Source of the DNA: Torpedo marmorata
Taxonomy: Eukaryota
Assembly (NCBI GenBank): GCA_977017645.1
Contig: OZ360226.1
Location: 24,118,001 to 24,182,000 of the forward strand
Length of the DNA stretch: 64,000 bases
Reading direction: 5' to 3'
A program made the position numbers and the translations under genes. How positions within the stretch are numbered: position 1 is the first letter of the stretch; every line of letters starts with the position of its first letter. The notes beneath the pieces are model-generated. The model was not told the origin of the DNA, ran no database searches, and worked only from the letters and a program-made list of their open reading frames with translations. Of this stretch, positions 6,489 to 52,829 are shown in pieces.

Positions 6489-7068
6489 TATAGAGATTTT
6501 GATCCAACAATAGTCACTTGGAGGCTAAGTGAGATACTTGTTTTTGACGTGTTTCAATTAATTTACTAACAAAGTCCGATATGTTCAAAAAACTTTATTT
6601 ACACACGTGACTTGCAGCAATCTTCAATGACTTAAATATAAACAGTTCTTGATAACGATATTTAATGAGTTCCTTTAAACGATTCATTTGACTGTATTTA
6701 GATGTTCAATTAAATGACTTTAAAACATAATAAAACTAGCTTAAATGTTCAATGAAACGTGGTTAAATGTTCCATGAAACGGTCAATAAAAGATTTGGCG
6801 ATCTCACTCACCCTCCTCTAAGCCTCCATCTTTTTCCCATTCTTTTTCCCGATTCGCGCATGCTCAATGCGCCTATTTCACCGCGCATACTCCACCGCGC
6901 ACACTGCTGTCAATTCCCAACTGCGCATGCGCCCGTCGGCACTCTAGCACATGCGCAGAGTACTAAATAGGCCTAGCACGGCCTACAAACACCGCGACTC
7001 CTCCGTGACCCGCCGAGAACACCGCAGCGCCGCGATCAAGGTAAGTAATCAAGCCTACGGCTCTTACA
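6489..7068 (-). repeat. 3' LTR of BEL copy 1
   Basis: Near-identical to 11703-12268; TGTAAGAG...TATA in element orientation. Confidence 0.95.
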
Positions 7069-7488
7069 CCGGCCCCTAATTATTATAATTAGACGCAATG
7101 TCTTAAATAATAATTACACAATAAATTATAAATAACAATAACCATAACATTCAAACAATATACAAATCTTCTTTCTTCATAAGACCAGAGTTTACCATAA
7201 CTCTGAATCAACAAAAAGTCTGTAACCTGTGAAGTATACAACAACAAATAAAGTCAGTTTGTATTTATCAAAGTTCCTCCGTCTCCAACAGAAGGAAGAC
7301 CTTGTTAATAAGTCTATTTAGAAAGCCAGTCTTAGTTTTAATTCGCACTTGACGCCAAGTCCCCTTTTGTCCTGAATAGTCTCAATAATTTTTCCAAGTA
7401 ACCAGGAGTTTCTTGGAGTTGAATTATCCATAATAATTACAATGTCTCTTTAAAGTTCTTTTATCTCCATAATCTTTGAGTTAAAATG

Positions 7489-10400
7489 TCAAACAGTAAA
7501 CCTCCAATCTTCCTCAGACAAAATAGATACAGTTTTCCTTTTGAATTTAACACGAGGTACTTCTTCAGCATGTCGTTTCAGTTTATTCCTTTCTTCAGCA
7601 TTCCACTTCTCATGTGAAGAATTTAAACTCTTAGAACTAGAATTTGAATGTTTATCTGATCCTTTAGATTTTAATAAACAGGTCTCTTTAACCACTCTGG
7701 TTTCTATTGCCTTTTCCTGCAATTCCAAATCCAATTTTGCAACTTTCAATTCAGTCTCAGTTCTTTCCGAGAAATTAATAATTTGATCTGAAGTCAAAAT
7801 ATCATGTGATACATTGATATTTCTATTGTCAACCCTGCTACGGAAAACTTGAAATTTTTAAATTTCTTCATCTTGCTTGTTACATTTCTGCAATGCAATA
7901 TCACATTCTTTCTGCATTGTTAATAGCTGAACATTCAATTTACATTCTTGATTGTTTTTTATAGTCAACTATTTTGAGTTATTAACCAATAACGTTCTCT
8001 TTCAAAATATTAATCTCTTCCTCCAACCTTTTACATTTTGATAATGCTGAATCTCTTTCCTCAATAACTGTATTCATTTCTTCAGCAGTTATTCTTTTCT
8101 TCCGTTTTCTGACTTTGCGAATTTTACTTACAATTAAATCTTTCTGTTTACTGTTTTCATGATTATCTAATATTTCCAATTCCCCTTTCAACATTTTGTT
8201 CTCTGAATTCAATTGCATTAAATTAAAATTCACATTTTTCTTTATTCCATCAGCACAATTTTCTGTGTTCTCCAGTTTTACATCACATTGCAAAATTTCT
8301 TCATTAGCTTTGTCTGTTGTAACCTCTGAACTACAAAATCTACATACAGATTTGTTTTCAGTCACTTGTTTTATTCCTATATCTGATTCAATTACACATG
8401 AATAATCAATAGTATTATTTGCAACATCTTCTAATACTTCACTTTCATTCATTTCTGATGAAAATAATTCCTTCAATGTTGTTTTAAATACCCTTGATTT
8501 ATTTTCACATTGATCTGTTTTCTTTTCTTCAAAAGTGATTTTCTTATTCACAGTTTTTTGCTCTTCGCTTAACTCATCAACTTTCACAACCGAAATTCTA
8601 TTAATATTTATCGCTAACTGTTCCTGACAATATCATTATTTCTTTCCAATGGTCCATTGATTGTCCAACCAAGCTTGGTTCTAATAGCGTAAGGTCCATT
8701 CCTTCTACTCTGTATTACTTCTAGTGGTTCCAAAACCTTTGGCACATCTGAACCAATCAGCATTTCTATCTCAGAATTAATTTCAGGTAAATAAACCTTC
8801 CACAGATAAGCTAAATGATGGATATCTTTTTGATGAGGAATACTTCTTTCATGCACAGGCATAGTCTTCTGAGTATATAAACTTTGAAGATCACAAAAAT
8901 TTTTGTCATCCAATCCAGCAACCTCTAAGCCTGAAACAATGCTGGTTTCAACTACCTTTTCTTGTCCCATGGTTTTCAACATAATTCTTGACCTTCTTCC
9001 TTGAATATTAAGTTTGTTCATTAGTCCTTCCATGCAAAAAGATGCAGTGCTGCCTGGGTCTAGAAATGCATATGTTTGTACTGTTGCATCCCCTTTCTTG
9101 GTCTTTACTTGTACAGGCACGATCGAAAGTTTGAAGTTATCCACACCGGCCCCAGTAAGACCACTTGTCTGAACCGAGGTTATAACATTGTTTTCTGTTG
9201 TTTCCTTTGTTTCTGTTTGCTCCTTTTCCAATTCCTTGTTTCTGTTATGGATATGCAACATTCTAGAATGTTTCAAATTGCATATGTTACAATTAATTTG
9301 CTTCTCGCAGTTTTTACTGATGTGCCCTTTACACAGACAGCTAAAACATATTCCATTTTCCTTTAAGAAAGCGATCTTCTCCTTATGTTCCTTCTTTTCC
9401 AATCATAAACACATTTCCAAAGAATGTCCACCTTTACAGAACAAACAACTCTTTTCATCAGGCAAACTTTCCTTTTCCTTATTTACTTTGTCCTTTTTTT
9501 TATTTATAACTGACACATTAGTAGCAAAAGTACTCCTTTTCAATTTCGGACTAGGCTGTGAGTTAGACCTCCTTACATCTTTGCCCATTGAATTGTCTCT
9601 GGTATTTCCATATATTGGATCTGTTTCAATGTACACCTGTCGTTCAAGAAAATTTACCAAATCTTTTAAGGTAGCTCTTCGACCGTAATTTCCTTGTAAA
9701 TCACAAGCCAAATTTCTCCATCTATCCCATAACTTGTAAGGTAATTTTTCTAAGATGATTCGCATATTACCAGGCACTTCAAGCTCACGAATATTATCGA
9801 TATCTTCCATGGCATTACAACATCCTCTTAAAAATAGAGTATATTCTTGTAGAGCCTTTACATTATTTTGTTTTATTGATGTCCATTTAAGAGCTTTACC
9901 CATATAAGCTAAAGCAATTCGATGCTTGTTGCCAAAATGTTGTTCCAGTAAAGTCTTAGCTCTGTCTAATCCTCTTTCTGAGGACATATGTTGACATCTC
10001 TTTACCAGTTCTTTTGGATGTCCCTTTGTGAACATTTCCAAATAATAAAGACATTCATCACGATCTTGGCATTTATTTTCAATATTGCGTTTGAAAGATT
10101 TCATAAATGATTAATACTGAAGTGGATCTCCATCAAAAATTTGTATCTCTTTCTTGGGTAAAGAAGAGAGAGACTGTAACTGAATCAATGATGCAGCGAT
10201 TTCATTTTGTCTTTCCTTGGATGACAATACATTGTTCTGTTCACCGTCTCTTGTTGCAGGTAATGTATCTGGAAACCTCACTGGTATAGTTTCTTCCATA
10301 TTTCTGATGCTTGACTCAAATAACAAGGAAGCTGCATCGTTCGACCGAACCCAAGCCGCATCTTTGTCTTCAGATGTTACCACTGGTACATGCGACTCGA

Positions 10401-11331
10401 TACCAATATGCTCTTGAAAGATTTGTCCTTGTATATGCAAGTCTTGTATCCTTGGTTCTAAAATATCTACCCTTTTGGTTGGTTTATTTTCCTGTGACTC
10501 TTTTTTTAAATATGACCTTTTATTATCAGACACTTTAGTTAATTTACTTCTAGCACCAGATACCATTGAGCCTTCTATTGCTTTCTTTTTTGCCTTGGCA
10601 ATAGTAATGTTTGCTTCCAGCTCCTGCTGTTCTTTTCTCTGCCTTAGCTGCTCCTTCTCTTGTCTTAGCTGCTCCTCCTTTTGTCTTAGCTGCTCCTCCT
10701 GTCGTTCTAAATTATGTTTATCCTTAAGCGTATTTTGTTGTGCAAGAAGAGCGGCCAAGTCAACTTCAATCTTTGTACGTGACGATGCAGAACTTGAAGT
10801 ACGAGAAACTCTGGAGCTCAAACCAGAACTTTGTTTGCTTCTCCTGCTTTCAGCATTTGAGACACTGTCACTTGCTTGTATTTCGTCCTGCAGGTCATAT
10901 GTTGTCTTCATACTTACCTCTTTCTCCAATTCGAATTGTACATCCTTTGCATCTTCAGCCTCTTCATTTTCTTCATCCTCTTCATTTGGTGACACAATTT
11001 CAGCCATTTCCACGTTATCTTCTTGTTCATCTAATGAAGCTGCCTCTTCTTCCTTTGCCAGCTTCAATCTTGCGATGAGAACCTTTTTATTTCCACTTAT
11101 GTCCTTTTTCAGTCGCTTCAATTCTTCTTTAATATCCGCGACCTTCATGTCTTTAATACGTTGGTCCTTAACAGCAACATCAGCGGTTGCTGCGTCAGCT
11201 GCTGATACATCAGTGGCTGCTGCATCAGAGGCTGCTATGGCCACTTTACTCGTCTTGTTCCACTGTCCTTCAAGCATACACAACACTAGCCTAATCAACA
11301 GTCCCCAATGGACCAGCGGCAGCAAATCCAA
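7489..11331 (-). pseudogene. SAP-Gag-protease-MIPOL1-like polyprotein of copy 1, broken by stops/frameshifts
   Basis: ORFs 10111-11331 (SAP, coiled coil, FDGDPLQY), 9403-10104 (Gag core), 8614-9402 (CFSCLCKGHISKNC, AFLDPGS), 7982-8587 (ITAEEM..IEERDSALSKCKRLE), 7489-7797. Confidence 0.9.
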
Positions 11332-11702
11332 TCTGTGTTCTAACTTGCCAAAGATACACAGAAGGAGTCCACAGACTTATGCCTACCACTTCAAATGACT
11401 GTAATGTGCTGCTATTCACAAACGAGTTTCATCCACAACATCCATCAATAATATCGCTGATTTTCCAAAAATGGTTTCTCCAACGTATTTATAGTACACT
11501 TTACTATAAGATTTGAAGCTTTAAATCCCTCTCTGGCTGTTACTCATGGCAGATGGATGTGGATTACAAACTGCCTCCTACTCGAGGCATCTCCAAGATG
11601 GCCACTATTTTATTTTAAATATCAGTCCAAAGCACAGAGAGATTATTCTATCTTCTTTCCTTTAATTTTCTGTTCCAAACAACCTCTTTTATTGACTAAT
11701 AA

Positions 11703-12268
11703 TATAGTGACTTTGATCCAACAATAGTCACTTGGAGGCTAGGTGAGACACTTGTTCTTGACGCATTTCAATTAATTTACTAACAAAGTCTGATATGTTC
11801 AAAAAACTTTATTTACACACGTGACTTGCAGCAATCTTCAATGACTTAAATATAAACAGTACTTGATAACTATGTTTAATGAGTTCCTTTAAACGATTCC
11901 TTTGACTGTATTTAGATTTTCAATTAAATGACTTTAAAACATAATAAAACGAGTTTAAATGTTCAATGAAACGTGGTTAAATGTTCCACGAAATGATCAA
12001 TAAAAGATTTGGCGATCTCACTCACCCTCCTCTAAGCCTCCAACTTTTTCCCATTCTTTTTCCCGATTCGCGCATGCTCAATGCGCACACTCCACCGCGC
12101 ACACTGCCGTCAATTCCCAACTGCGCATGCGCCCGTTGGCTCTCTAGCGCATGCGCAGAGTACTAAATAGGCCTAGCACGGCCTACAAACACCGCGACTC
12201 CTCTGTAATCCACCGAGAACATCGCAGCGCCGCGACCAAGGTAAGTAATCAAGCCTACGGCTCTTACA
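11703..12268 (-). repeat. 5' LTR of BEL copy 1
   Basis: Near-identical to 6489-7068. Confidence 0.95.
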
Positions 12269-29117: not shown

Positions 29118-29497
29118 CCAGGCCCTGACAAACTCCAATTACTTTGCAGATAGTTCAAGCAGCTGATTGAAACTTCAACTGACAACAACACAAAGTATGG
29201 CAAACTGTTGCCCCTGCTTCCTCCAGGCCACCAGCCTGTTCGTCTTTGTCTTCCCAAGCTGCTGATCATTGGCCTTCATTGAAGCCGCCAGCTCCCGTTC
29301 AGCCACTGTCAAAGGGCAGGTTATCTCCACAGATCTCCAGTTCACAGTGTCATGGACCATGACTGACCATTTGGTCTGCGGGTGGTCAGCAGGAAGGATG
29401 AAGTCTTTTGGAGTACCCACTGGGACCTGGTACTGAAAGAGTTAACTTGCCCAGGACTTCTTGTACTCACAGAGAGAGAGACACCAGAGAGAGACAT

Positions 29498-30082
29498 TGT
29501 AAGAGCCGTAGGCTCATTAACTTACCGTTGTTGCGGCGCTCCGAGGCCACGTCGGGCCATGGAGCACTCGCGTTGTTCTGTAGGCCGTTGTCGGCCCGTT
29601 CTTTGCTCTGCGCATGCGCGGGAGTGCCGACGGGCGCATGCGCAGTGTGTAGTCACGTCATTGTGCGCGTTGCAGTCTGGGAAATGTAGTATGCGCGGGG
29701 TAGGATGCGCAGTGGTTTTAGGAGCTAATGGGCATGCGCAAATCAAGGATAGAGAGAGAGAAAAGGAAAGGAATAAGATGTTTGGAGGGTGAGTGAGGTC
29801 TCCACATCTTTATTGACCGTTTTATATCGTTTTTATAACTTTTACATCGTTCTACAGTGTTTCATATCATTTTGGAATTGTTTAAAGAATTATTTAAAGG
29901 AACTCATCATACATCGTTTACAAGAACTGTTTAATTAAAGTCATTGAAGATTACTGCAAGTCATGTGTGTAAATAAAGGTTTTTGAACATATTGGACTTT
30001 GTTTGTAAATTGATTAAAACGCGTCAAAGACAAGTATCTCACTTAGCCTCCAGGTGACTATTGTTGGATCGAAGTCACCGTA
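29498..30082 (+). repeat. 5' LTR of BEL copy 2
   Basis: Near-identical to 34750-35335. Confidence 0.95.
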
Positions 30083-30532
30083 ATATAGTCAATAAAGTGC
30101 TGGCTGTTTGGAACGGAAGTTAGAAGGAAAGAAGATAGAAAAATCTCTGTGCTTTGGACTGATATAAAATGGTGGCCATTTTGGAGATGCCTCGAGTTGG
30201 GGGCAGTTTGTAATCTACATCCATCTGCCATGAATAACAGCCAGAGAATGATTTAAAGCTTCAAATCTTATAGAAAAGTGTCCTATAAATACGTTGGAAA
30301 AACTATTTTTTGGAAAATCAGTGATATTAGTGACAGATGTTGTGGTTGAAACTCGTTTGTGGATTGCAGCACATTACAGTCATTTGAAGTGGTTGGCATA
30401 AGTCTGTGGACTCCTTCTGTGTATCTTTAGCAAGTAAGAACACAGATTGGGATTGCTGCCGCTGGTCCATTGGGGACTGTTGTTTGGCTAGTGTTGTGTA
30501 TGCTTGAAGGAAAGAGGAACAAGACGAGTAAA

Positions 30533-31054
30533 ATGGCCGCAGCAGCCACTGATACAGCAGCTACTGATATATCAGCAGCTGACGCAGCAACCGCTGATGT
30601 TGCTGTTGAGGACCAACGTATTGAAGACATGAAGGTTTCGGATATTAAAGAAGAATTGAAGCGACTGAAAAAGGACATAAGTGGAAATAAAAAGGTTCTT
30701 ATCGAAAGATTGAAGCAGGCAAAGGATGAAGAGGCAGCTTCATTAGTTGAACAAGAAGATAACTTGGAAATGGCTGAAATTGTGTCACCAAATGTTGAAG
30801 AAATTAAAGTGATTGAAGATGCAAAGGATATACAATTCGAATTGGATAAAGAGGTAAGTATGAAGACAACATATGAACTGCAGGACGAAATACAAGCAAG
30901 TGACAGTGTCTCAAATGCTGAAAGCAGGAGAAGCAAAAGAAGTTCTGGTTCAAGCTCCAGAGTTTCTCGTACTTCAAGTTCTGCATCAAGGTTGATGTTA
31001 AATTGGCCGCTCTTATTGCACAACAAAAAACGCTTAAGGATAAATTTATTTTAG
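30533..31054 (+). CDS. N-terminal part of the BEL polyprotein with SAP domain (frameshifted from the main ORF by a ~10-bp deletion near 30990)
   Basis: AAAATGGCC start, MAAAA; IEDMKVSDIKEELKRLKKDISGNKKVLIERLKQA fits the SAP pattern; this region is continuous with Gag in copy 1. Confidence 0.75.
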   Translation: MAAAATDTAATDISAADAATADVAVEDQRIEDMKVSDIKEELKRLKKDISGNKKVLIERLKQAKDEEAASLVEQEDNLEMAEIVSPNVEEIKVIEDAKDIQFELDKEVSMKTTYELQDEIQASDSVSNAESRRSKRSSGSSSRVSRTSSSASRLMLNWPLLLHNKKRLRINLF

Positions 31055-34000
31055 AACAAGAGGAGGAGCAGCTAAGACAAAATGAGAATCAGCTAAAGGA
31101 GCGGCTAAGACAAGAGGAGGAGCGGCTAAGACAAGAGGAGGAGCAGATAAGACAAAATGAGAATCAGCTAAAGGAGCGGCTAAGACAAGAGGAGGAGCGG
31201 CTAAGACAAGAGGAGGAGCAGTTAAGACAAAATAAGGAGCAGCTAAGACAAAAGGAGGAGCAGCTAAGACAAGAAAAGGAACAGCTAAGGCAGAGAAAAC
31301 AACAGCAGGAGCTGGAAGCAAACATTGCTATTGCCAAGGCAGAAAAGAAAGCAATAGAAGGCTCAATGGTATTTGGTGCTAGCAGTAAATTATCTAAATT
31401 GTCTGATAATAAAAGGTCATATTTAAAAAAGGAGTCACAGGAAAAGAAACCAACCAAAAGGATAGATATTTTAGAACCAAGGATACAAAACTTACATATA
31501 CAAAGACAGACCTTTCAAGAGCATATTGGTATCGAGTCACATGTACCATTAGTAACACCTGAAAGCAAAGCTGCGGCTTGGGTTCGGTCGAACGAAGCAG
31601 CTTCTTTGTTATATGAGTCAAGCATCAGAAATATGGAAGAAACTACACCAGTGAGGTTTCCAGATACATTACATGCAACAAGAGACGGTGAACAGAGCAA
31701 TGTATTGTCATCCAAGGAAAGACAGAATGAAACTGCTGCATCATTGTTTCAGTTACAGTCTCTCTCTTCTTTACCCAAGAAAGAGATACAAACTTTTGAT
31801 GGTGATCCACTTCAATATCAATCATTTATGAGATCTTTCAAACACAATATTGAAGATAAATGTCAAGATCGTGATGAATGTCTTTATTATTTGGAAATGT
31901 TCACAAAGGGACATCCAAAAGAACTGGTAAAGAGTTGTAAACAAATGTCTTCAAAAAGAGGATTAGAGAAAGCTAAGGCTTTATTGGAACAATATTTTGG
32001 CAACAAGCATCGAATTGCTTTAGCTTATATGGATAAAGCTCTTAAATGGACATCAATAAAACAAAATGATGTAAAGGCTCTGCAAGAATATACTTTATTT
32101 TTAAGAGGATGTTGTAATGCTATGGAAGAAATCGATAATATTCGTGAGCTTGATGTGCGAATTATCTTAGAAAAATTACCTTACAAATTATGGGATAGAT
32201 GGAGAGATTTGGCTTGTGATTTACAAGTAGATTACGGTCGAAAAACTACCTTAAAGGATTTAGTAAATTTTCTTGAACGACGGGTGTACGTTGAAACAGA
32301 TCCACTATATGGAAATACCAGAGATAATTCAATGGGCAAAGATGTAAGAAAGTCTAATTCACAGTCTAGTCCGAAATTAAAAAGGAGTACTTTTGCTACT
32401 AATGTGCAAGTTATAAGTAAAGAAAATGACAAAGTAAATAAGGAAAAGGAAAGTTTGCCTAATGAAAAGAGTTGTTTGTTCTGTAAAGGTGGACATGCTT
32501 TGGAAATGTGTTTACGATTGGAAAAGAAGGAACATAAGGAAAAGATCGCTTTCTTAAAGGAAAATGGAATATGTTTTAGCTGTCTGTGTAAAGGACACAT
32601 CAGTAAAAACTGCGAGAAGCGAATTAATTGTAACATATGCAATTTGAAACATCCTAGAATTTTGCATATCCATAACAGAAACAAGGAATTGGAAAAGGAG
32701 CAAACAGAAACAAAGGAAACAACAGAAAATAATGTTATAACCTCGGTTCAGACAAGTGGTCTTACTGGGGCCGGGGTGAATAACTGCAAACTTTCAATAG
32801 TGCCTGTACAAGTCAAGGCCAAGAAAGGGGATGTAATAGTAAAAACATATGCATTTTTAGACCCAGGCAGCACTGCATCTTTTTGCACGGAAGGACTAAT
32901 GAATAAACTTAATATTCAAGGAAAAAGATCAAGAATTATGTTAAAAACCATGGGACAAGAAAAGGTTGTTGAAACTAACATTATAACAGGCTTAGAGGTT
33001 GCTGGATTGGATGACAAAAAATTTTGTGATCTTCCAAGTGTATATACTCAGAAGACTATGCCTGTGAATGAAGGAAATATTCCTCATCAAAGGGATATCC
33101 ATCATTTAGCTTATCTGTGGAAGGTTTATTTACCTGAAATTAATTCTGAGATAGAAATGCTGATTGGTTCAGATGTGCCAAAGGTTTTGGTACCAAAAGA
33201 AGTAATAGAAAGTAAAAGGAATGGACCTTATGCTGTTAAAACCATTCTTGGTTGGACAATCAATGGACCAATGGAAAGAAATAATGATATTGCTCAGGAA
33301 CAGGTAGCGATAAATATTAATAGAATTTTGGTTGAGAAAGTTGAAGAGTTAAGCGAAGAGCAAAAAACTATGAATAAGAAAATCACTTATGAAGAAAAGA
33401 AAACAGATCAATGTGAAAATAAATCAATGATATTTAAAACAACATTGAAGGAATTAATTTCGTCAGAAATGGATGAAAGTGAAGTATTAGAAGATGTTGC
33501 AAATAATACTATTGATTATTCATGTGTAATTGAATCAAATAAAGGAATAAAACAAGTGACTGAAAACAAATCTGAATGTAGATTTTGTAGTTCAGAGATT
33601 ACAACAGACAAAGCTAATGAAGAATTATTGCAATGTGATGTAAAACTGGAGAACACAGAAAATTGTGCTGATGGAATAAAGAATAATATGAATGATAATT
33701 TAATGCAATTGAATTCAGAGAACAAAATGTTGAAAGGGGAATTGGAAATATTAGATAATCAAGAAAACAGTAAACAGAAAGATTTAATTGTAAGTAAAAC
33801 TCGCAAAGTCAGAAAGCGGAAGAAAAGAATAACTGCTGAAGAAATGAATACAGTTATCGAGGAAAGAGATTCAGCATTATCAAAATGTAAAAGGTTGGAG
33901 GAAGAGATTAATGTTTTAAAAGAGAACAAGTTATTGGTTAATAACACAAAACAATTAACAATACAGAAAGAATGTGATATTGCATTGCAGAAATGTAACA

Positions 34001-34320
34001 AACAAGATGAAGAAATTAAAAAATTTCAAGTTTGTCGCAACAGGATTGACAATGGAAATATCAATGTATCACAAAGAACTGAGACTGAATTGAAAGTTAC
34101 AAAATTGGATTTAGAATTGCAGGAAAGAGCCATAGAAACCAGAGTGGTTAAACAGACCTGTTTAAAATCGAAAGGAACAAATAAATATTCAAATTCTAAT
34201 TCTATGAGTTTAAATTCTTCACATGAGAAGTGGAATACTGAAGAAAGGAATAAAGTGAAACGACGTGCTGAAGAAGTGCCTTGTGTTAAATTCAAAAGAA
34301 AAACTATCTATTTTGTCTGA
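31003..34320 (+). CDS. BEL Gag (heptad coiled coil, Gag core, Cys/His knuckles) - aspartic protease - MIPOL1-like coiled-coil fusion, 1105 aa open
   Basis: FDGDPLQY, CLFCKGGHALEMC / CFSCLCKGHISKNC / CNICNLKH, AFLDPGS, GWTINGP, then non-pol sequence ITAEEMNTVIEERDSALSKCKRLEEE. Confidence 0.9.
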   Translation: MAALIAQQKTLKDKFILEQEEEQLRQNENQLKERLRQEEERLRQEEEQIRQNENQLKERLRQEEERLRQEEEQLRQNKEQLRQKEEQLRQEKEQLRQRKQQQELEANIAIAKAEKKAIEGSMVFGASSKLSKLSDNKRSYLKKESQEKKPTKRIDILEPRIQNLHIQRQTFQEHIGIESHVPLVTPESKAAAWVRSNEAASLLYESSIRNMEETTPVRFPDTLHATRDGEQSNVLSSKERQNETAASLFQLQSLSSLPKKEIQTFDGDPLQYQSFMRSFKHNIEDKCQDRDECLYYLEMFTKGHPKELVKSCKQMSSKRGLEKAKALLEQYFGNKHRIALAYMDKALKWTSIKQNDVKALQEYTLFLRGCCNAMEEIDNIRELDVRIILEKLPYKLWDRWRDLACDLQVDYGRKTTLKDLVNFLERRVYVETDPLYGNTRDNSMGKDVRKSNSQSSPKLKRSTFATNVQVISKENDKVNKEKESLPNEKSCLFCKGGHALEMCLRLEKKEHKEKIAFLKENGICFSCLCKGHISKNCEKRINCNICNLKHPRILHIHNRNKELEKEQTETKETTENNVITSVQTSGLTGAGVNNCKLSIVPVQVKAKKGDVIVKTYAFLDPGSTASFCTEGLMNKLNIQGKRSRIMLKTMGQEKVVETNIITGLEVAGLDDKKFCDLPSVYTQKTMPVNEGNIPHQRDIHHLAYLWKVYLPEINSEIEMLIGSDVPKVLVPKEVIESKRNGPYAVKTILGWTINGPMERNNDIAQEQVAININRILVEKVEELSEEQKTMNKKITYEEKKTDQCENKSMIFKTTLKELISSEMDESEVLEDVANNTIDYSCVIESNKGIKQVTENKSECRFCSSEITTDKANEELLQCDVKLENTENCADGIKNNMNDNLMQLNSENKMLKGELEILDNQENSKQKDLIVSKTRKVRKRKKRITAEEMNTVIEERDSALSKCKRLEEEINVLKENKLLVNNTKQLTIQKECDIALQKCNKQDEEIKKFQVCRNRIDNGNINVSQRTETELKVTKLDLELQERAIETRVVKQTCLKSKGTNKYSNSNSMSLNSSHEKWNTEERNKVKRRAEEVPCVKFKRKTIYFV

Positions 34321-34384
34321 TGAGGATTTGAAGTTTACTGGTTGACGTTTTAACTCAAAGATAAAAGAGATAAAAGAACTTTAA

Positions 34385-34568
34385 AGAGACATTATGATTA
34401 TTATGGATAATTCAACTTCAAGAAACTCCTGGTTACTTGGAAAAATTATTGAGATTTTTCAAGACAAAGAGGACTTGTGCGTCAAGTGTGAATTAAAACT
34501 AAGACTGTTTTTTTCTAAACAGACCTATTAACAAGGTCTGCCTTTTGTTGGAGACAGAGGAACTTTGA
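34385..34568 (+). pseudogene. Remnant of the extreme C-terminus of BEL pol (post-integrase, DUF5641-like)
   Basis: DIMIIMDNSTSRNSWLLGKIIE..RPINKVCLLLETEEL*; also at ~7269-7450 (-) and 50301-50481 (+). Confidence 0.75.
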
Positions 34569-34749
34569 TAAATATAAACTGACTTTATTTGTTGTTGTAT
34601 ATTTCACAGGTTACAGACTTTTGTTGAATCAGAGTTATGGTAAACTCTAGATTTATGAAGAAGGAAGAAAGAAGATTTGTATTGTTTTAAATGTTATAGT
34701 GTAATTATTATTCAAAACATTACGTCTAATTATAATAATTAGGGGCCGG

Positions 34750-35335
34750 TGTAAGAGCCGTAGGCTCATTAACTTACCGTTGTTGCGGCGCTCCGATGTC
34801 TCGTCGGGCCTTGGAGCGCTCGCGTTGTTCTGTAGGCCGTTGTCGGCCCGTTCTTTGCTCTGCGCATGTGCGGGAGTGCCGACGGGCGCATGCGCAGTGT
34901 GTAGTCACTTCATTGTGCGCGTTGCAGTCTGGGAAATGTAGTGTGCGCGGGGTAGGATGCGCAGTGGTTTTAGGAGCTAATGGGCATGCGCAAATCAAGG
35001 ATAGAGAGAGAGAAAAGGAAAGGAATAAGATGTTTGGAGGGTGAGTGAGGTCTCCACATCCTTATTGACCGTTTTATATCGTTTTTATAACTTTTACATC
35101 GTTCTACAGTGTTTCATATCATTTTGGAATTGTTTAAAGAATTATTTAAAGGAACTCATCATACATCGTTTACAAGAACTGTTTATATTAAAGTCATTGA
35201 AGATTACTGCAAGTCATGTGTGTAAATAAAGGTTTTTGAACATATTGGACTTTGTTAGTAAATTGATTAAAACGCGTCAAAGACAAGTATCTCACTTAGC
35301 CTCCAGGTGACTATTGTTGGATCGAAGTCACCATA
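34750..35335 (+). repeat. 3' LTR of BEL copy 2
   Basis: TGTAAGAG...GTCACCATA. Confidence 0.95.
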
Positions 35336-35675
35336 ATAACTTGCCCAGGACTTCTTGTACTCACAGAGAGAGAGACACCAGAGAGAGACAGACTGTGGAG
35401 AGATACTTTGTTGCACTTTTGCAAAAACAGGTGCAAACCTCTGCAAAAAAGCATGCAGTTTTGTGTTGCAAAGGCTGGAGAACACAGCAAAATCCAGGCT
35501 TGTGCATCCCAGGGGAAAAGGCTGGGAGAATAGCACATGGCCTCCTGTCTCAGCAAAATCCTGAGTTAAAACAACTTTTGTGAAGAACAGGCGTGAGATC
35601 AGCGAGACAGGCTGTGAGATCCAAGTACACGCCTCAATCAGTGGTATACTGATTTGGAGTCGCAATCCTCGTGAA

Positions 35676-36239: not shown

Positions 36240-36287
36240 GAAGGAGACAAATTTACTGACAAAGTTAGGGATGTATTTAAACCTTTT

Positions 36288-42520: not shown

Positions 42521-45096
42521 TTTTATCAGACCTGAGAATTTTAAGATTCACAGAAAGAGGGAGAGGAGCAGAGAAAACAAGGAAGGTTTTTTTTTTAACA
42601 GCATGAAAGATAGGAGGAATTAAATGGAAAAGGGGCTGATAGTGCATGGTGAAAGAGGGTGCTAATGAGATGCAGAAAATCTAGAGAATGTAGAGAGAAA
42701 AGCAGAATAATTATCTGAGCCTCGCCAACCCTCTTGGGCAGAGAATTCCAAAGATTCACAAACCTCTGCGTGAAAAAATACTTCTCATCTCAACCTGAAC
42801 GTCAAACCTTTATTTTGAGATTCTGACCCCTGCTTCTATGTACTCCCGACAAGAGAAATATCCTTGTGTCTCCCAATCCCCATAAGAATTTTCCTGCCTC
42901 AACGACCTGCTGAGTATGCCAGGCATTCTCTGCGTGAGTTTCAGATTTTCAGCATCCACAGTCTTTTGCATTATTGAACTGAAGTCTGAGTATTTGATGT
43001 GAAAAATTTGTCAAAATAGCTGCAAGTGAAGAACAACATCAGTGTCATTTTGGAAGGTTCCAATCCAACAAACGGGTCAGCCTAAAATCCTTAATCAGTA
43101 GTTCATTCCAGATAAGAAAAGCCAGATTGTTATTGAAATGGGTCCTTCAGCAATATGAATACACTTTAATTAGAAGCATGTTATAAGAAAAGGGCTTGAG
43201 CTGTAAGCTGCCCAAGGTAACTCCTGAGGATCAGCTAATTATTTCTTTTGAAGCTTCTAAAATCTCACCATTTTTAATACTAACATGGTGCTGAGGAGGA
43301 GGGAATTTTGTAACAATAACTAGTAGAGAAAACAACAGATAACAACCCGAAGTTTGCTTTTATTTGTAGTTGAGAGCGACCATACTATCACATGTATTTC
43401 ACAGACTGAGTGTTATCACAGATTGGAACTGAACTGTACAGAAGGGGCATCCTTCATTGAAACTCTCTAATAAAATGACAATGGTTAGGGTCTCACACAG
43501 TCCAATCTCAGAGATTGACCTCTTTCTTTAATAAAAGTGGATTCCCCCTTACTGTCATTGATAAAGCCCACACCCATATCCTCTCTATGTCTCGTACTTC
43601 CATCTTCACCCCACCTCCCCACAGGCAGAACCAGACAGCGTCCCTCTGGTCCTCACTTTCCACCCCACCTCACTCCCATCCGACCAGTAGCAGATTAACT
43701 ACCTAGGCTGAGCTTTGGGGAGGCCCCCCAGGGTCGGCGTCATGGGGGGGGGCATTCGCAGGCCATGCCGCCCAAAATGAGTTATTGTGCCCCCCCACCC
43801 ACCCGCAGCAGCAGCGTTACCAAAGCAACTACACATTTTATTAGGTTTTCGATTCCTGTCTCAAATTTAATGTCTCCATCAATGCAAATGATGTTTGAAG
43901 TTCAAATTACTTCATCAATATTCAACCACAAAGCGTCTTGCAATAAAAGATTAAAATTTAGAAACGTCATGTGTTGCTTTGCGACTTTTTTTTTTTTTTT
44001 TTTACTTTGTAGTTACACAATATTATAACCTGTACCACAGGGTCGCAAAGTAACTGATCATGCTGGGAAGCAGCGACAGCACATTGTCAAGTCACATCTG
44101 ATCAAAAACACAGGTTCTTCTGTTCACACACTGATTGGAATCGAGACATTTAGTTTGGCCTCATAACGTGCGGCCTCTGTTCAATCTGATAATGCATCTC
44201 AACATTAATTTTAGCAGACGAATTTGCTACCTTCATATAACGACAGGAATTTTTTTTTCAGAATTGGCAATTTCAACTTGAACAATAGGTGTTTTTATTT
44301 CGACTCAATAATGCATATCTCCATGGAGGTTATCACCTATGGTTAGATTAAATGTTCACTCAACAATTATGAAAGTATCTAGCAAAAAATTGGCAATCTC
44401 TGCCCCATTATTACTTCATTTATGAACTTTAAATTAAAAAGCACAAATAACTAGATGAAAATTACATGTTTTATTAAAAGTCCATTAGATATAGACTTCA
44501 CTAAAGTCCACGCTAATTTGTATGAATATTACCAATTTAGATTTTTTTTGGTCTTGACATTGAATTCGATCAGTGGTTGCTTTGTGACTGTCAAAGATTG
44601 CTGTAAGAGCTGCAAGCTTAGTTACTTACCTTGATCGCGGCGTTCCGATGGGCTCGGCGGGTTTCGGAGGAGACGCGGAGGTTAGTAAGCCGTGCTGGGC
44701 CTATTTAGTACTCTGCGCATGCGCGGGAGAGCCGACAGGCGCATGCGCAGTTGGGAATTGACGGCAGTATGCACGGTGGAGTATGCGCAGTGGGGTATGC
44801 GCAGTGGGGTATGCGCAGTGGGGTATGCGCATTGAACATGCGCGAATCGGGGAAAAAGAATTAGAAAAAGATGGCGACGGAGTGAGATCGCCATATCTTT
44901 CATTGACCATTTTAAAGTCAATTAAAGACGTTTCATTGATTGTTTAAAGACAGTTTAAAGTAATCATTTAAAGGAATTTATTAAACATCGTTATCAAGAA
45001 CTGTTTATATTTCGTTTAAAGAAGATATTTAAGTCATTCAAGATTGCTACAAGTCACGTGTGTAAATAAAGTTTTTTTTTAACATATTGGACTTGT

Positions 45097-45980
45097 ATCT
45101 AAATACTAGTATAGATGAACAACATTGGAAAGAATTGTGTAAATTGAGTATGACTAAGATTATTAATGTTAGATATAGATTAGTACAGTATAACTTTTTT
45201 CATCAATTATATATAACACCCAAAAAATTAAAGAAATTCAATCCGGCATTGTCAGATATGTGTTTTAGATGTAAAGACGAAATAGGTTCTTTTGTACATT
45301 GTACATGGTCATGTTTGAAAATTAAAAATTTTTGGTCTAAAGTCAAAGATTTTTTAGATAGAATTTTTAATATTACGATTCCAATGGATCCTATGATATT
45401 TTTGTTTGGAGATATTAAAAAAATTAGTATTAGAAATAGATTAAGTATGTATCAAATAGAATTTTTACGAATCGTGTTAGCTATTTCAAAAAAATGTATT
45501 GCTATTACTTGGAAATCAGACTTAGATTTGAATTTAGATAGATTACATGCAGAGTTACGTTCTTGTATACCACTGGAAAAAATTACGTATAACTTACGAG
45601 ACAAATATCATTTCTTTTTGAAAATTTGGAGCCCATACATGAGAATTATGGGTATGAATTAATTCTCTAAAAGTTAGTACCGCTGACAAAAGTAACCTCC
45701 AATATACAAATAGAGTTAGTTTGAAATAGTTTTCTCCTCATACTAACTCTCTTAACTTTATTTCTCATTCTATTTCTTTTCTTTTAACTAACATTTTTAT
45801 ATATTCTTATTTTTCTTTTTTTCTTTATTAGAATAGTGTGGGAGGGTTGGGGAGGGGAGGGAGGGAGGGGGGGATGGTAAATGTATCACATGTATTTTGA
45901 ATAATATATTATTTTTGATTATGTATTTTGTGATTTTAAAAACTAAATAAAATTATTAAAAAAAAACAAAAAAAAAACAA
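45097..45980 (+). mobile_element. L1/Tx1-clade LINE 3' end inserted in the 5' LTR of BEL copy 3, 16-bp TSD
   Basis: ORF2 C-terminal CFRC..HCTWSC zinc motif (ORF 45087-45662), G-rich UTR, poly(A); AACATATTGGACTTGT at 45081-45096 and 45981-45996. Confidence 0.92.
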
Positions 45981-46527
45981 AACATATTGGACTTGTTAGT
46001 AAATTAATTGAAACGCGTCAAGAACAAATATCTCACCTAGCCTCCAAGTGACTATTTGTTGGATTGAAGTCACTATACTTTAGTCAATGAAAGAATTATT
46101 GTTTGGAACAGAAAATTGAAGGAAAGAAGATATAATAATCTCTCTGTGCTTTGGACTGATATTTAAAATAAAATGGTGGCCATCTTGAAGATGCCTCGAG
46201 TTGGGGGCAGTTTGTAATCCATATCCATCTGCCATGAGTAACAGCCAGAGAGGGATTTAGAGCTTCAAATCTTATAGTAAAGTGCACTATAAATACGTTG
46301 GAGAAACCATTTCTTGAAAATCAGCGATAATATTGATGGATGATGTGGTGGAAACTCGTTTGTGAATGGCAGCACATTACAGTCATCTGAAGTGATAGTC
46401 TGTGGACTCCTTCTGTATCTTTGGCAAGTTAGAACACAGATTGGATTTGCTGCCGCTAGTACATTGGGGACTGTTGATTTGACTAGTGTTGTGTATGCTT
46501 GAAGGACAGTGGAACAAGACGAGTAAA

Positions 46528-49500
46528 ATGGCCGCAGCAGCCTCTGATGCAGCAGCCACTGATGTATCGGCAGCTAACGCAGCAACCGCTGATGTTGCTG
46601 TTAAGGACCAACGTATGAACGACATGAAGGTTGCGGATATTAAAGAAGAATTAAAGCGAATTAAACTAGATATAAGTTGAAATAAAGAGGTTCTCATCGC
46701 AAGATTGAAGCTGGCAAAGATAGAAGAGGCGGCTTCATTAGATGAACAAGAAGATAGCAAGGAAATGGCTGAAATTGTGTCACCAAATGAAGAGGGTGAA
46801 GAAAATGAAGAGGATGAAGATGCAAAGGATGTACAATTCGAATTGGAGAAAGAGGTAAGTAAGAAGACAACATATGACCTGCAGGACGAAATACAAGCAA
46901 GTGACAGTGTCTCAAATGCTGAAAGCAGGAGAAACAAACAAAGTTCTGGTTCGAGCTCCAGAGTTTCTCGTACTTCAAGTTCTGCATCGTCATGTACAAA
47001 GATTGAAGTTGACGGCCGCTCTTCTTGCACAACAAAAAACGCTTAAGGATAAGCATATTTTAGAACGACAGGAGGAGCACCTAAAACAAAAGCAGGAGCA
47101 GCTAAGGCAGAGAAAAGAACAGCAAAAGCTGGAAGCAAACATTACTATTGCCAAGGCAAAAAAGAAAGCAATAGAAGGCTCAATGGTATCTGGTGCTCGA
47201 AGTAAATTATCTAAAGAGTCTGATAATAAAAGGTCATATTTTAAAAAAGAGTCACAGGGAAAGAAACCAACCAAAAGGGTAGATATTTTAGTACCAGGGG
47301 TACAAGACTTGCAAATACAAGGACAAATCCTTCAAGAGCATATTGGTATCGAGTCACATGTACCAGTGGTAACATCTGAAGACAAAGCTGCGGCTTGGGT
47401 TCGGTCGAATGATGCAGCTCCCTTGTTATTTGAGTCAAGCATCAGAAATATGGAAGAAACTACACCAGTGAGGTTTCCAGATACATCACCTGCAACAAGA
47501 GACGGTGAACAGAGCAATGTATTGACATCCAAGGGAAGACAAAATGAAATTGCTGCATCATTGATTCAGTTACAGTCTCTCTCTTCTTTACCCAAGAAAG
47601 ATACAAACTTTTAATGGTGATCCACTTCAGTACCAATCATTTATGAGATCTTTCAAACGCAATATTGAAAATAAATGCCAAGATCATGATGAATGACTTT
47701 ATTATTTGGAAATGTTCACAAAGGGACATCCAAAAGAACTTGTAAAGAGTTGTCAACATATGTCTTCAGAAAGAGGATTAGACAGAGCTAAGGCTTTACT
47801 GGAACAACATTTTGGCAACAAGCATCAAATTGCTTTAGCTTATATGGATAAAGCTCTTAAATGGACATCAATAAAACAGAATGATGTAAAGGCTCTACAA
47901 GAATATACTCTATTTTTAAGAGGATGTTGTAATGCCATGGAAGATATCGATAATATTCGTGAGCTTGAAGTGCCTGGTAATATGTGAATCATGTTAGAAA
48001 AATTACCTTACAAGTTGTGGGATAGATGGAGAAATTTGGCTTGTGATTTACAAGGAAATTACGGTCGAAGAGCTAACTTAAAGGACTTGGTAAATTTTCT
48101 TGAACAACAGGTGTACATTGAAACAGATCTAATATATGGAAATATTAGAGACAATTCAATGGGGAACAAAGATGTAAGGAGGTCTAACTCACAGCCTAGA
48201 CCGAAATTGAAAAGGAGTACTTTTGCTACTAATATGTCAGTTGTAAATAAAGAAAAGGACAAAGTAAATAAGGAAAACGAAAGTTTGCCTGATGAAAAGA
48301 GTTGTTTGTTCTGTAAAGGTGGACATGCTTTGGAAATGTGTTTACGGTTGGAAAAGAAGGAACATAATGAAAAGATCGCTTTCTTAAAGGAAAATGGAAT
48401 ATGTTTTAGCTGTCTGTGTAAAGGGCACATCAGTAAAAACTGTGAGAAGCGAATTAGTTGTAACATATGCAATTTGAAACATCCTAGAATGTTGTATATC
48501 CATCAAAGAAACAAGGAATTTGAAAAGGAGCAAACAGAAACAAAGGAAACATCAGAAAACAATGTTATAACCTCAGTTCAGACAAGTGGTCTTACCGGGG
48601 CCGGTGTGGATAACTGCAAACTTTCAATAGTGCCTGTACAAGTAAAGACCAAGAAAGGGGATGCAACAGTACATACATATGCATTTCTAGACCCAGGCAG
48701 CACTGCATCTTTTTGCATGGAAGGACTAACGAACAAACTTAATATTCAAGGAAGAAGGTCAAGAATTATGTTGAAAAGCATGGGACAAGAAAAGGTCGTT
48801 GAAACCAGCATTGTTTCAGGCTTAGAGGTTGCTGGATTGGATGACAAAAAATTTGTGATCTTCCAAGTTTATATACTCAGAAGATTATGCCTGTGCATGA
48901 AGGAAACATTCCTCATCAAAATGATTTCTCGCGTTTGTCTTAACTGTGGAAGGTTTATTTACCTGAAATTAACTCTGAGATAGAAATGCTGATTGGTTCA
49001 GATGTGCCAAAGGTTTTGGAACCAGTAGAAGTAATACGGAGTAGAAGGAATGGCCCTTACGCTGTTAGAACAAAGCTTGGTTGGACAATCAATGGACCAT
49101 TGGAAAGAAATAATGATATTGCTCAGGAACAGTTAGCGATAAATATTAACAGGATTTCGGTTGTGAAAATTGATGAATTAAGGGAAGAGCAAAAGACTGA
49201 ATAATAAAATCACTTTTGAAGAAAAGAAAACAGATCAATGTGAAAATAAATAAAAGGTATTTAAAACAACATTGAAGGAATTATTTTCATCAGAAATGAA
49301 TGAAAATGAAGTATTAGAAGATGTTGCAAATAATATTATTGTTTATTCATGTGTAGTTGAATCAAATACAGGAATAAAACAAGTGACTGAGAACAAATCT
49401 GAATGTAGATTTTGTAGTTCAGAGGTTACAACTGACAAAGTTAATGAAGAAATATTGCAATGTGATGTAAAACTGGAGAACACAGAAAATTGTGCTGATG

Positions 49501-50300
49501 GAATAAAGAAGAATGTGAATGATAATTTAATGCAATTGAATTCAGAGAACAAAATGTTAAAATGGGAATTGGAAATAGTAGATAATCATGAAAACAGTAA
49601 ACAGAAAGATTTAATTGTAAGTAAAATTCGCAAAGTCAGAAAGCAGAAGAAAATAATAACTGCTGAAGAAATGAATACAGTTATTGAGGAAAGAGATTCA
49701 GCAATATCAAAATGTAAAAGGTTGGAGGAAGAGATTAATATTTTGAAAGAGAACAAGTTATTGGTTAATAACACAAAACAGTTGATTATAGAAAACAATC
49801 AAGAATGTAAATTGAATGTTCAGCTACTAACAATGCAGAAAGAAAGTGATATTGCATTGCAGAAATGTAACAAGCAAGATGAAGAAATTTAAAAAATTCA
49901 AGTTTACCACAGAAGGGTTGACAATAGAAATATCAATGTATCACATGATATTTTCACTTCAGATCAAGTTATCAATCTCTCAGAAGGAACTGAGACTGAA
50001 TTGAAAGTTGCAAAATTGGATTTGGAATTGCAGGAAAAGGCAATAGAAACCAGAGTGGTTAAAGAGACTCGTTTATTAAAATCGAGAGGATCATATAAAT
50101 ATTCAAATTCTAGTTCTAAGAGTTTAAATTCTTCACATGAGAAGTGGAATGCTGAAGAAAGGAATAAACTGAAACGACATGCTGAAGAAGTGCCTCGTGT
50201 TAAATTCAAAAGAAAAACTGTATCTATTTTGTCTGAGGAAGATTTGAGGCTTACTGGTCAACGTTTTAACTCACAGATTCTGAAGATAAAAGAACTTTGA
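46528..50300 (+). pseudogene. SAP-Gag-protease-MIPOL1-like polyprotein of copy 3, multiply disrupted
   Basis: ORF pieces from 46486 to 50300 collinear with the copy 2 ORF. Confidence 0.9.
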
Positions 50301-50685
50301 GGAGACATTGTGATTATTATGGATGATTCAACTCTAAGAAACTCCTGGTTACTTGGAAAAATTATTGAGACTATTCAGGACAAAAGGGGACGTGCGTCAA
50401 GTTCGAATTAAAACTAAGACTGGCTTTCTAAATAGACCTATTAACAAGGTCAGCCTTCTGTTGGAGACGGAGGAACTTTGATAAATACAAACTGACTTTA
50501 TTTGTTGTATACTTCACAGGTTACAGAGTTTTGTTGATTCAGAGTTATGGCAAACTCTGGTCTTATGAAGAAAGAAGAAAGAAGATTTGTATATTGTTTG
50601 AATGTTATATGGTTATTGTTATTTATAATTGATTGTGTAATTATTATTTAAGACATTGCGTCTAATTATAATAATTAGGGGCCGG

Positions 50686-51253
50686 TGTAAGTGCTGTAAG
50701 CTTAGTTACTTACCTTGATTGCGGCGTTCCGATGGTCTCGGCGGGTTTCAGAGGAGACGCGGAGGTTAGTAGGCCGTGCTGGGCCTATTTAGTACTCTGC
50801 GCATGCGCAGGAGTGCCAACGGGCACATGCACAGTTGGGAATTGACAGCAGTGTGCGCGGTGGGGTATGCACAGTGGAGTATGCGCGGTGGAGTATGCAC
50901 ATTGAGCATGCGCGAATCGGGGAAAAAGAATTAGAAAAAGATGGCGATGGAGGAGGGTGAGTGAGATCGCCATATCTTTCATTGACCATTTTAAAGTCAT
51001 TTAAAGATGTTTCATTGATGGTTTAAAGACATTTTAAAGTAATCATTTAAAGGAATTTATTAAACATCGTTTTCAAGAACTGTTTATATTTTGTTTAAAG
51101 AAGATATTTAAGTCATTGAAGATTGCTACAAGTCACGTGTGTAAATAAATTTTTTGTTAACATTTTGGATGTTAGTAAATTAATTGAAACGCGTCAAGAA
51201 CAAATATCTCACCTAGCCTCCAAGTGACTATTTGTTGGATTGAAGTCACTATA
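50686..51253 (+). repeat. 3' LTR of BEL copy 3
   Basis: TGTAAG...CACTATA; matches 44602-46077 minus the L1 insert. Confidence 0.95.
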
Positions 51254-52829
51254 ATTGCTTTGTTTTTCAGCCTGTAACACATTGCCCTTATTTTAATTTC
51301 TGAGGAGGTCGACAGGGAACACCACATCGGTAATCCACTGCCCATTTCAGAGAATACATTCGCATGGCGCTTTCATTTGCTTGCGCAGAAAGGAGCCGGG
51401 ACATGTTCGAGTTCTTAGCCCGTGTATTAAGAGTGGATTTTATCTTATATTTATTTCAAAGAAGCACGATACATGAAGGCCAAATCAGATCAAACAGTTT
51501 TGTTAACATTAGTTTTCCAGTACTCTCACCCCCATGCAACTGTATTTGAATAGAAAATAAAATTACCTGAAGTGTATGGGTTATTTATACTTGCCTGCGT
51601 TATGATTACAATTGTTGCAATTAACGCTATAACGACATTTGGGTACATAGCTACAGATAGAAGGCAAGCAAATGCCGGCATGGACAACTTTGCCAAGTTT
51701 TTGCTGTGAAACCTCCGTCACTCCATGACTAAATATCGTGTCAATACAGGCGCACACCAATCGTATGCCAGAAAAACATCATTGCGCCGTCAATGGGCAG
51801 TTAATGAAACCCGTTTCCAGACCAAAAAATTATGGAATCAACATCGAGTACACAGCCCATTCCATTTTTTAAAATGCTTATGCCTTCATGGATATTAGCC
51901 TTTGCTGTTATTTGTGTAGGTATGTATCAATGTCTCCAACACCAACCCCTCCCCCCTTGTTTTTTGATTTCAGTGAATAGGTGAAAGCCAATCGACAGGA
52001 GCGTTGAAAGCTACAAGTTGTTGCAATTTTAAAATACTTTTAATATTGTGGCTTAGTTCCCTTTGGCATCTTTAAAGTAACATTTCTATTGTATTTGTTG
52101 TATCTCTTATTTCTATTGTTGTATCTCTTATTTCTATTTCTATTGTTCTATTGTCCCTTACCTCCGGGCCCCTAGGCTTCAGCCTACTCAGCTTAATGGT
52201 TAATCTGCCACTGCATCCGACAATTTATCCTGAGACACTTCTGCCAACTTCAGCATGATCCCACCACTGACCACATCTTCCTCTCCCTACTCTCTGAGAC
52301 TCCCTCGTCCACTCTTCCCTCCCCACACTTCTTTCCACCCCCTTAGACACTTCCCGCTGTAACCACAGAAAGTGTAAAACTTGTCCCTACATCTTCTACC
52401 TCACTTCCATCCGGGTCCACACACAGACCTTTCAGGTGAGGCAGAGCTTTACCTGCACATCGTCCAACCTGATCTGCTGTATTCGGTGTACTCGGTGCGG
52501 CATCTACTTTGGTGAGACCAAATGATTATTGGGTACCCGCTTCACTGAACACTTGCACTCTGTCTATGGGTCCAAGCTTGAACTCCTGGTAGCCAACCTG
52601 TTTCAGTCCCTCAAACAATTCCCACGTTGAAATGTCTGTCCTCGGCCTCCTCTACTGCCAGGGTGAGGCCAAATGTAAATTTGAGGAACAACACATCATC
52701 TTTCTCCTAGACTGCTTTAACCCAACATCACAAACATTGATTTTTAAAATTTTAAGTAACCCACCCCCCCCCATCTGGATCCAATATTTCCATCTCTGCT
52801 TTAACTAGTCTTGTTCTTACTCCCCTAAG

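Follow-up and report, generated by a model that had tools for sequence, protein, structure and literature searches.

Spliced fragments of three host genes in the place of pol in an abundant non-autonomous BEL/Pao retrotransposon family of Torpedo marmorata

What occupies the place of pol in a BEL/Pao long terminal repeat (LTR) retrotransposon that retains its gag and protease regions is the question raised by a 64,000-nucleotide stretch of the Torpedo marmorata genome (GCA_977017645.1, contig OZ360226.1, positions 24,118,001 to 24,182,000 of the forward strand), hereafter the window. An original prediction, made from the sequence alone, held that a fragment of the host gene MIPOL1 had replaced pol through transduction of an mRNA. 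The window contains three copies (A, B and C) of one 5.8-kb BEL/Pao LTR element, in which spliced pieces of BRCA1, MIPOL1 and ELOA (the gene for Elongin A), all unlinked in the host, stand in frame with Gag-protease where pol would be (Table 1). In copy B, a stop-free frame of 1132 aa (stop to stop, positions 30922-34320) continues from gag-protease into approximately 320 residues which, as predicted, show no homology to pol, and a Pfam scan returned no match in either the main frame or the cargo. The survival of the last 60 or so pol codons downstream was likewise correctly predicted, about 61 being present. Reverse transcriptase (RT), RNase H (PF05380) and integrase are absent from all three copies and present in pol-bearing relatives, so that the family represents a non-autonomous BEL/Pao derivative. 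The frame ending at 34320 does not, however, comprise the whole gene: a frameshift near 30990 cuts it off from the SAP-domain gag start at 30533, and a private frameshift near 34304, in the ELOA part, brings it to its end.

The insert of copy B is made up of BRCA1 (residues 1-138), MIPOL1 (about 125 residues) and Elongin A (the last ~55 residues), so the predicted likeness to MIPOL1 is real at the places named and covers only about 125 of the 320 residues. A tblastn search with a named MIPOL1 protein matched 49611-49910 at 50% identity over 101 aa (E 3e-21) and 33829-33990 at 58% over 55 aa (E 2e-11), with two further pieces located at 8089-7837, and both MIPOL1 Pfam families were present in all 34 matches of a protein search (2337 candidates), which supplies the significant MIPOL1 hit proposed as a check. 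The MIPOL1-like block quoted for copy B (33781-34036) proved to be composite, as its ENNQE part is held by copies A and C and has been deleted in frame from copy B. An exhaustive search with insert residues 3-144 returned a 1943-aa protein, ray BRCA1, as the top match (E 8.6e-22); the BRCA1 part is 47% identical over 154 columns to residues 198-350 of this protein (E 2e-33) and 70-79% identical in nucleotides to the host exons on C61, with the intron missing. Fuller relatives of copy B match the Elongin A family PF06881 (E 3e-16), and their best protein matches are batoid ELOA; a search with PF08711 did not by itself single out ELOA, while the protein search did. Among the protein matches, the best ones indicate a ray or skate host. 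In the 6.22-Gb assembly, gene stretches that are absent from the element gave one match for BRCA1 (C61) and one for MIPOL1 (C40), and the large ELOA exon gave one, on C41.

Host exons were mapped from retrieved genomic stretches, and the exon names (B, M and E) were assigned in this analysis. In the exon-wise alignment of the 30 best-scoring loci (98 scored, from 33,438 first-look candidates), the order in the element is B6-B7-B8-B9 of BRCA1, M6-M7-M8 followed by M2-M3 and the start of M4 of MIPOL1, and E4-E5-E6-E7 of ELOA. The matches to the host end at splice sites and the pieces abut in the element, so that alignment to the MIPOL1 gene of the species itself, another of the proposed checks, shows exon junctions crossed without introns; capture of intron-containing genomic DNA is thereby ruled out. 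The 48 older copies, which were selected by similarity to host proteins, match the host exons at 89.7-95.1% ungapped identity, and eight young-type copies at 81.6-83.9%; the latter were chosen by their position, three of them lying in the window, four within introns of MIPOL1 and one beside another locus. The best copies reach 92-98% DNA identity to host exons, ruling out a generic coiled-coil match. The cargo is also no normal part of autonomous BEL elements, being absent from 12/12 retrieved pol-bearing copies. No BEL-MIPOL1 fusion was found among proteins of 607-1934 aa, where the four matches (4246 candidates) all carry the MIPOL1 families. In the young-type cargo, the lineage-shared changes relative to the host are skewed to A/T (C>T 48, G>A 45 and C>A 26 of 172), which brings this cargo closer to the A-rich make-up of the element.

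Transduction of a host mRNA is thus borne out in so far as exon junctions are crossed without introns, but the prediction did not foresee that three unlinked genes are involved and that the MIPOL1 part is back-spliced. In 29 of the 30 best loci the end of exon M8 is joined to the first base of the earlier exon M2, with 17-20 of 20 bases matching, versus means of 7.3 matching bases for the intron and 3.9 for the next exon as alternative continuations in the same loci; the lone exception is shifted by four bases. The same join is found in all six young copies that could be anchored, A, B and C included (two of the eight could not be anchored), and in copy B the bases after the junction match M2 at 12/20 positions, as against 4/20 for the next exon and 5/20 for the intron. 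Both splice sites are matched exactly by the join, which makes use of the upstream one of two adjacent AG acceptors, and neither M1, M9 nor any other exon outside M2-M8 was seen in the elements in the exon-wise alignment. For each of six MIPOL1 exons tested, the 320 kb that include the gene contain one copy with 100% identity, which rules out a present-day tandem duplication of these exons. As the donor of a late exon is joined exactly to an earlier acceptor and the host gene lacks a duplication, the permuted exons appear to carry the signature of a captured circular RNA (circRNA); an exact non-colinear exon-exon junction and sequence confined to the exons of the circle are also what was described for circRNA-derived pseudogenes (PMC4897178). 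Exons M2-M8 total 780 nt, or 260 codons, and the back-splice itself therefore preserves the frame.

Table 1. Features of the three element copies in the window, with the locations of three sister loci
Feature	Position	Strand	Details
Copy A	6489..12268	-	structure as copy B; frame broken; cargo about 8562-7472; LTRs 92.4% identical; 5-bp target duplication
Copy B	29498-35338	+	LTRs 98.0% identical
Copy B 5' LTR	29498..30087	+	98.0% identical to 34750-35338; end set by relatives bounded by target-site duplications
Copy B gag N-terminus, SAP domain	30533..31054	+	PF02037, E 1.6e-9; co-linear with start of pol-bearing frames
Copy B BEL gag and protease	30922..33363	+	85-92% aa identity to pol-bearing BEL copies, residues 1-787
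Cargo 1, BRCA1 fragment	33359..33785	+	host exons B8 and B9 (B9 is the large exon), spliced, in frame
Cargo 2a, MIPOL1 exons M6, M7 and M8	33780..34040	+	spliced, in frame
Back-splice junction, MIPOL1 M8 end to earlier exon M2 start	34040..34041	+	
Cargo 2b, MIPOL1 exons M2 and M3	34041..34146	+	reduced by in-frame deletion
Cargo 3, Elongin A (ELOA) exons E4 and E6	34146..34362	+	77% and 86% nt identity to host exons on C41; tblastn
Copy of pol terminus and pol tail	34363..34568	+	stop 34382-34384; then about 61 codons, DUF5641 region, 34386-34568
Copy B 3' LTR	34750..35338	+	purine tract upstream; AATAAA at 35225
Copy C	44602..51255	+	structure as copy B; frame broken; cargo about 49188-50278; LTRs 89.0% identical; 5-bp target duplication
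Copy C 5' LTR			interrupted by insertion at about 45100-45980
Copy C back-splice junction	near 49912	+	
Sister loci L151, L152, L153	C2:258377000-258382000, C5:170371800-170376800, C39:130894300-130898800		

The backbone of the family is that of a BEL element. LTR pairs were found in all three copies; the LTRs start with TG, a purine tract is present, and 5-bp target duplications flank copies A and C as well as two pol-bearing copies. The LTRs of the family terminate in TATA, the usual LTR end being CA. Three Cys-His motifs can be read from the translation of the copy B gag, the protease motif FLDPGS is as in the pol-bearing relatives, and DUF1759 is matched in the copy A gag under the curated cut-off (E 8e-5). 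Against a pol-bearing frame, the homology of copy B ends at codon 957 and returns at about codon 2022. Among 150 scored matches to the Pao domain, 11 sit in frames of more than 2000 aa (6,618 first-look candidates, a number that spans all BEL families), and 11 of the 12 pol-bearing copies retrieved share about 85-95% identity with copy B as far as 33363 and then from 34386 onwards. The relatives carry PF05380 and PF18701, and the four that were scanned show the full BEL domain order, SAP-gag-RT-RNase H-integrase-DUF5641, with neither an env-sized frame nor a Pfam env match. The SAP domain opens gag in these BEL elements (30620-30720 in the window), the pol-bearing copies included. In a gag-protease tree of 26 rows (midpoint root; one young copy omitted as too short), 11 pol-bearing copies form a clade nested inside the young cargo copies (98/99; 100/99 with the B group), and the older cargo copies stand separately, together with one divergent pol-bearing copy. 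Leaving the direction aside, this tree is read as satellites and helper co-evolving through repeated recombination. The gag-protease region of the young copies has a ratio of non-synonymous to synonymous change (pN/pS) of about 0.5 versus a pol-bearing copy, which may be inherited from donors.

The family is abundant. A 29-mer of the cargo occurs 25,346 times in the assembly with up to three mismatches (control 0), and a 15-mer spanning the junction has 5,155 exact matches (control 6), giving a copy number of at least 25,000. This number and the close pol-bearing relatives support the predicted spread in trans by a helper. One copy, located in an intron, has LTRs that are 99.7% identical and a frame of 1354 aa, which indicates recent spread, and the LTR pairs of the older types are about 88-92% identical where found. 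Four copies lie inside introns of the host MIPOL1 gene on C40 (L053, L054, L062 and L069), one of them approximately 2.4 kb from the true exon M6, where it could mislead gene models. Five cargo matches at an exact spacing of 4,964 nt (C1:1498298-1518154) represent a tandem array of elements. Contigs over the cargo were found in four sequencing runs coded as three organisms, none of which is recorded as RNA and one of which may be the source itself; one such contig, of 930 nt and from a run not recorded as RNA, spans protease, BRCA1 and MIPOL1.

Further host genes have been taken up by the family and its relatives, bringing the number involved to seven. A minor five-gene type (L130, L132, L134-L138 and L141) carries, in this order, a 5' piece of ELOA followed by BRCA1, MIPOL1, ELOA, IARS1 (E 7.5e-78) and NDC80 (E 3.2e-8). 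A search for IARS1 gave 152 matches among 350 candidates, and the three loci retrieved are sister non-autonomous elements on the BEL backbone of this family, two of which end at the pol terminus. Within single frames, these contain a TACC-like piece, an RNase H remnant and pieces of IARS1 and of phosphoserine aminotransferase (PSAT). The TACC-like piece was identified through Pfam only and had no match in the PDB. Contiguous protein matches suggest that the IARS1, NDC80, TACC and PSAT pieces are spliced.

While the cargo varies, the reading frame is kept. All 18 distinct lineage-shared internal joins other than splice junctions keep the frame, as shown for 15 by the majority that the script scored in classes of at least three copies, for one by the open frame of copy B and for two by spanning open reading frames (ORFs), where chance would place one in three in frame per join and some joins are nested. 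Frameshifting indels outnumber in-frame ones by 53 to 18 among singletons, versus 5 to 11 among shared indels (p=0.002), and two of the five shared frameshifting indels add up to an in-frame deletion. In the BRCA1 and MIPOL1 parts of the young type, stops account for 4/59 singleton and 0/124 shared non-synonymous changes (p=0.01). The amino acids, by contrast, drift in a nearly neutral manner: in young copies pN/pS is 0.72 for shared versus 0.89 for singleton changes (p=0.67), and reaches 0.98 in the MIPOL1 part, so that a dN/dS-type test over copies, also proposed in the original prediction, gives no sign of a selected MIPOL1 protein function. The frames of the young and IARS1 types end at a pol-like terminus, and the distance from stop to poly(A) signal, measurable in 6 of 10 copies, is 490-930 nt in these six, pol-bearing ones included, where counting from the end of the protease gives about 1,860 nt. 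This pattern fits selection that keeps a single frame open between gag and the vicinity of the 3' LTR and does not act on the host peptides. With the frame kept, the amino acids nearly neutral and stops and frame changes tolerated at the far 3' end, translation would be needed and its product not.

The reading preferred here, and considered fairly probable, is that of a non-autonomous BEL/Pao family built by template switching and mobilised by helper elements, in which the cargo serves as translated filler. Host RNAs would have been co-packaged in a virus-like particle and copied by the reverse transcriptase of the helper, with repeated template switching putting copies of a spliced BRCA1 mRNA, a back-spliced circular MIPOL1 RNA and a spliced ELOA mRNA in the place of pol. 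The MIPOL1 circle would have been entered within M6, read across the M8-to-M2 junction and left in M4, and as this is less than one turn of its 780 nt, no repeat unit would be seen. The resulting element, with its LTRs, gag and protease, would be mobilised by the pol-bearing relatives, with which it would still exchange gag-protease and LTR sequence. An early stop followed by a long 3' tail would leave the RNA degraded by nonsense-mediated decay or poorly packaged, most likely the reason for a filler, and we infer avoidance of decay to be the preferred cause of the frame constraint.

Several observations weigh against this reading. Avoidance of decay leaves the retention of the cargo unexplained, as plain deletion of pol would also shorten the 3' tail. 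Microhomology at the joins is uneven (4-6 nt at two BEL joins and 2 nt between BRCA1 and MIPOL1), and extra bases of unexplained origin are found at the join of BEL to BRCA1 B6 (13) and at another (about 17); the latter, between MIPOL1 M4 and ELOA E4, are common to older copies (L114-L118), and such bases may be left over from additional captured RNAs. Two classes of joins came out of frame in the script (0/6 and 0/3), which is read as alignment overhang, checked only via open frames in copy B and in a single older copy; the 0/3 class is a three-copy subclass of another join, and one member has an open frame across it. Two further classes, with two copies each and hence below the three-copy threshold, are out of frame and were not counted. 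Stops shared between copies are present towards the end of the ELOA part, the joins to the pol tail at the extreme 3' end of the older types are out of frame with pol, and weak constraint on the amino acids is seen in some older groups (BRCA1 p=0.0008; ELOA p=0.02 and 0.05) in a test biased by host-side changes and by choice of loci by similarity. Samples are small, and the older copies were picked by their likeness to host proteins.

Part of this evidence could instead be taken to mean that the captured peptides serve the element, with the MIPOL1 coiled coil standing in for pol as a dimerising tail of protease or Gag, or the Elongin A segment recruiting ubiquitin-ligase or transcription partners of the host. 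The retention of M6-M8 in all BRCA1-bearing types examined, the persistence of the cargo over about 0.2 changes per site of gag-protease evolution and the weak constraint in some older groups would all agree with such a role, which is nevertheless unlikely given the pN/pS of the shared changes in the young MIPOL1 part, the loss of the Elongin A Pfam domain region from the young type, the in-frame deletions that shrink the cargo from about 2 kb to 1 kb and the unrelated cargo of the sister families. Near-neutral drift of the amino acids is what would be expected if a lucky in-frame chimera had simply been amplified by an active helper, the conservation of its frame being due only to ascertainment or to a requirement that the pol terminus be reached, at which the young-type and IARS1-type frames do end; the choice of the older loci by protein similarity points the same way. 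Such neutral hitch-hiking is nonetheless judged very unlikely, as many successive independent joins and deletions keep the frame, also in the eight copies sampled by position, and as the older types do not reach the pol tail in frame.

The permuted MIPOL1 order could also stem from a linear RNA, through a lost intragenic duplication, trans-splicing or two switches at exon ends, and the rest of the preferred reading would then be unchanged. A non-colinear junction is by itself no proof of a circle, a caveat also given in PMC4897178, and with less than one turn copied no repeat unit is visible; yet the join is exact at both splice sites and takes the upstream of two adjacent AG acceptors, the present MIPOL1 gene has no duplicated exon and the captured sequence is limited to M2-M8, which makes a linear origin quite unlikely. 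An idea known from plant work is camouflage, in which exons of essential genes deter silencing by small RNAs that would also hit BRCA1, ELOA, IARS1 or NDC80. The captured genes are indeed mostly housekeeping or cell-cycle genes, but identity to the host exons is only about 83% in the abundant young type, whose shared changes are A/T-biased, and conservation of the frame is not predicted, so that camouflage appears highly improbable.

Around copy B, the 5-bp target duplication is lacking, a direct duplication of approximately 54 bp flanks the element instead (29444-29497 and 35339-35392), and the 3' LTR is without its last bases; aberrant integration or an assembly effect may be responsible. 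The copy is nested in a SCAN-domain Gypsy element (35565-38787), within its 5' LTR, the partner of which is at 38918-39352. In this Gypsy element, the integrase domains lie upstream of the RNase H domain (36636-38787), an order known from Gmr1-like elements.

In a broader form of the preferred reading, helper-dependent satellites would over long times serially sample germ-line RNAs, circular ones included, and swap cassettes that are filtered only for frame. This is held to be marginally probable and, if true, no circRNA would be known to have undergone a larger genomic amplification. The family would then also offer direct natural evidence of circRNAs entering LTR particles and being copied by template switching, and a natural selection experiment indicating that the RNAs of LTR elements must be translated to near the 3' end. 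The set of captured genes would provide a fossil record of the RNAs packaged in the germ line, and capture by an LTR element would give circRNA-derived retrocopies a mechanism, at more than 100 times the copy number of the original report. The genome contains at least 25,000 fragments each of BRCA1, MIPOL1 and ELOA, or up to about 2.4% of the assembly if all elements are full length, and in rays these will confound the annotation of genes, the counting of retrocopies and the mapping of RNA-seq reads. Thousands of dated copies further allow tests of why LTR RNAs keep open frames, be it decay, packaging or protein function.

Acutely transforming, replication-defective retroviruses carry gag-onc fusions in which a host mRNA replaces pol in frame, and depend on a helper. 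Unlike these, the BEL/Pao family has no env and is inherited through the germ line, and its host peptide shows no sign of being the selected unit. Among LTR-mediated retrocopies in animals (Tan et al. 2016; PMC5131818), a partial spliced mRNA replaces the internal ORF; the mouse 'Super' retrocopy combines four genes, one mosquito case is BEL-flanked, secondary retroposition was noted and young fly cases are mostly in frame with the parent protein. The family has the same make-up, with intronless partial mRNA in place of part of the internal ORF between two LTRs, but the cases in the available text of PMC5131818 are single- or few-copy loci and differ from the at least 25,000 copies, in-frame Gag-protease fusion, continued helper exchange, frame kept over many later joins and back-spliced part seen here; the word 'circular' does not occur in that text. 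The three unlinked host gene pieces that form a hybrid ORF in the maize LTR retrotransposon Bs1 offer a further parallel in a plant element, with 1-5 copies and, in the available text, no circRNA part reported (PMC5131818, PMC13317346). The mouse circRFWD2 pseudogenes (Dong et al. 2016; PMC4897178) have a non-colinear exon-exon junction, no poly(A) and MMERVK10C-int LTR sequence nearby; 33 high-confidence copies were described there and the mechanism was left open, as opposed to a junction that is matched exactly more than 5,000 times and belongs to a defined LTR element, with the MIPOL1 part in frame with gag and two other genes. MIPOL1 is the first of the five most retrocopied genes in cartilaginous fishes according to a preprint (bioRxiv 10.64898/2026.06.26.734816) that puts forward non-LTR formation and selective filtering, its main text naming no LTR carrier, BRCA1 or ELOA; the available text of its companion (PMC13320880) adds nothing further on this signal, of which the BEL/Pao family may be the source. 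The expectation that such an element had not been described thus holds for the family, whose scale, composition and frame constraint did not turn up in a literature search by listings, and not for the general mechanism (PMC5131818, PMC4897178, the former as far as its available text goes), since LTR capture of mRNAs and circRNA retrocopies are known already at 1-40 copies. What is unusual in this family is the three-gene in-frame cargo, its circRNA-derived part, the copy number and a constraint that concerns only the frame.

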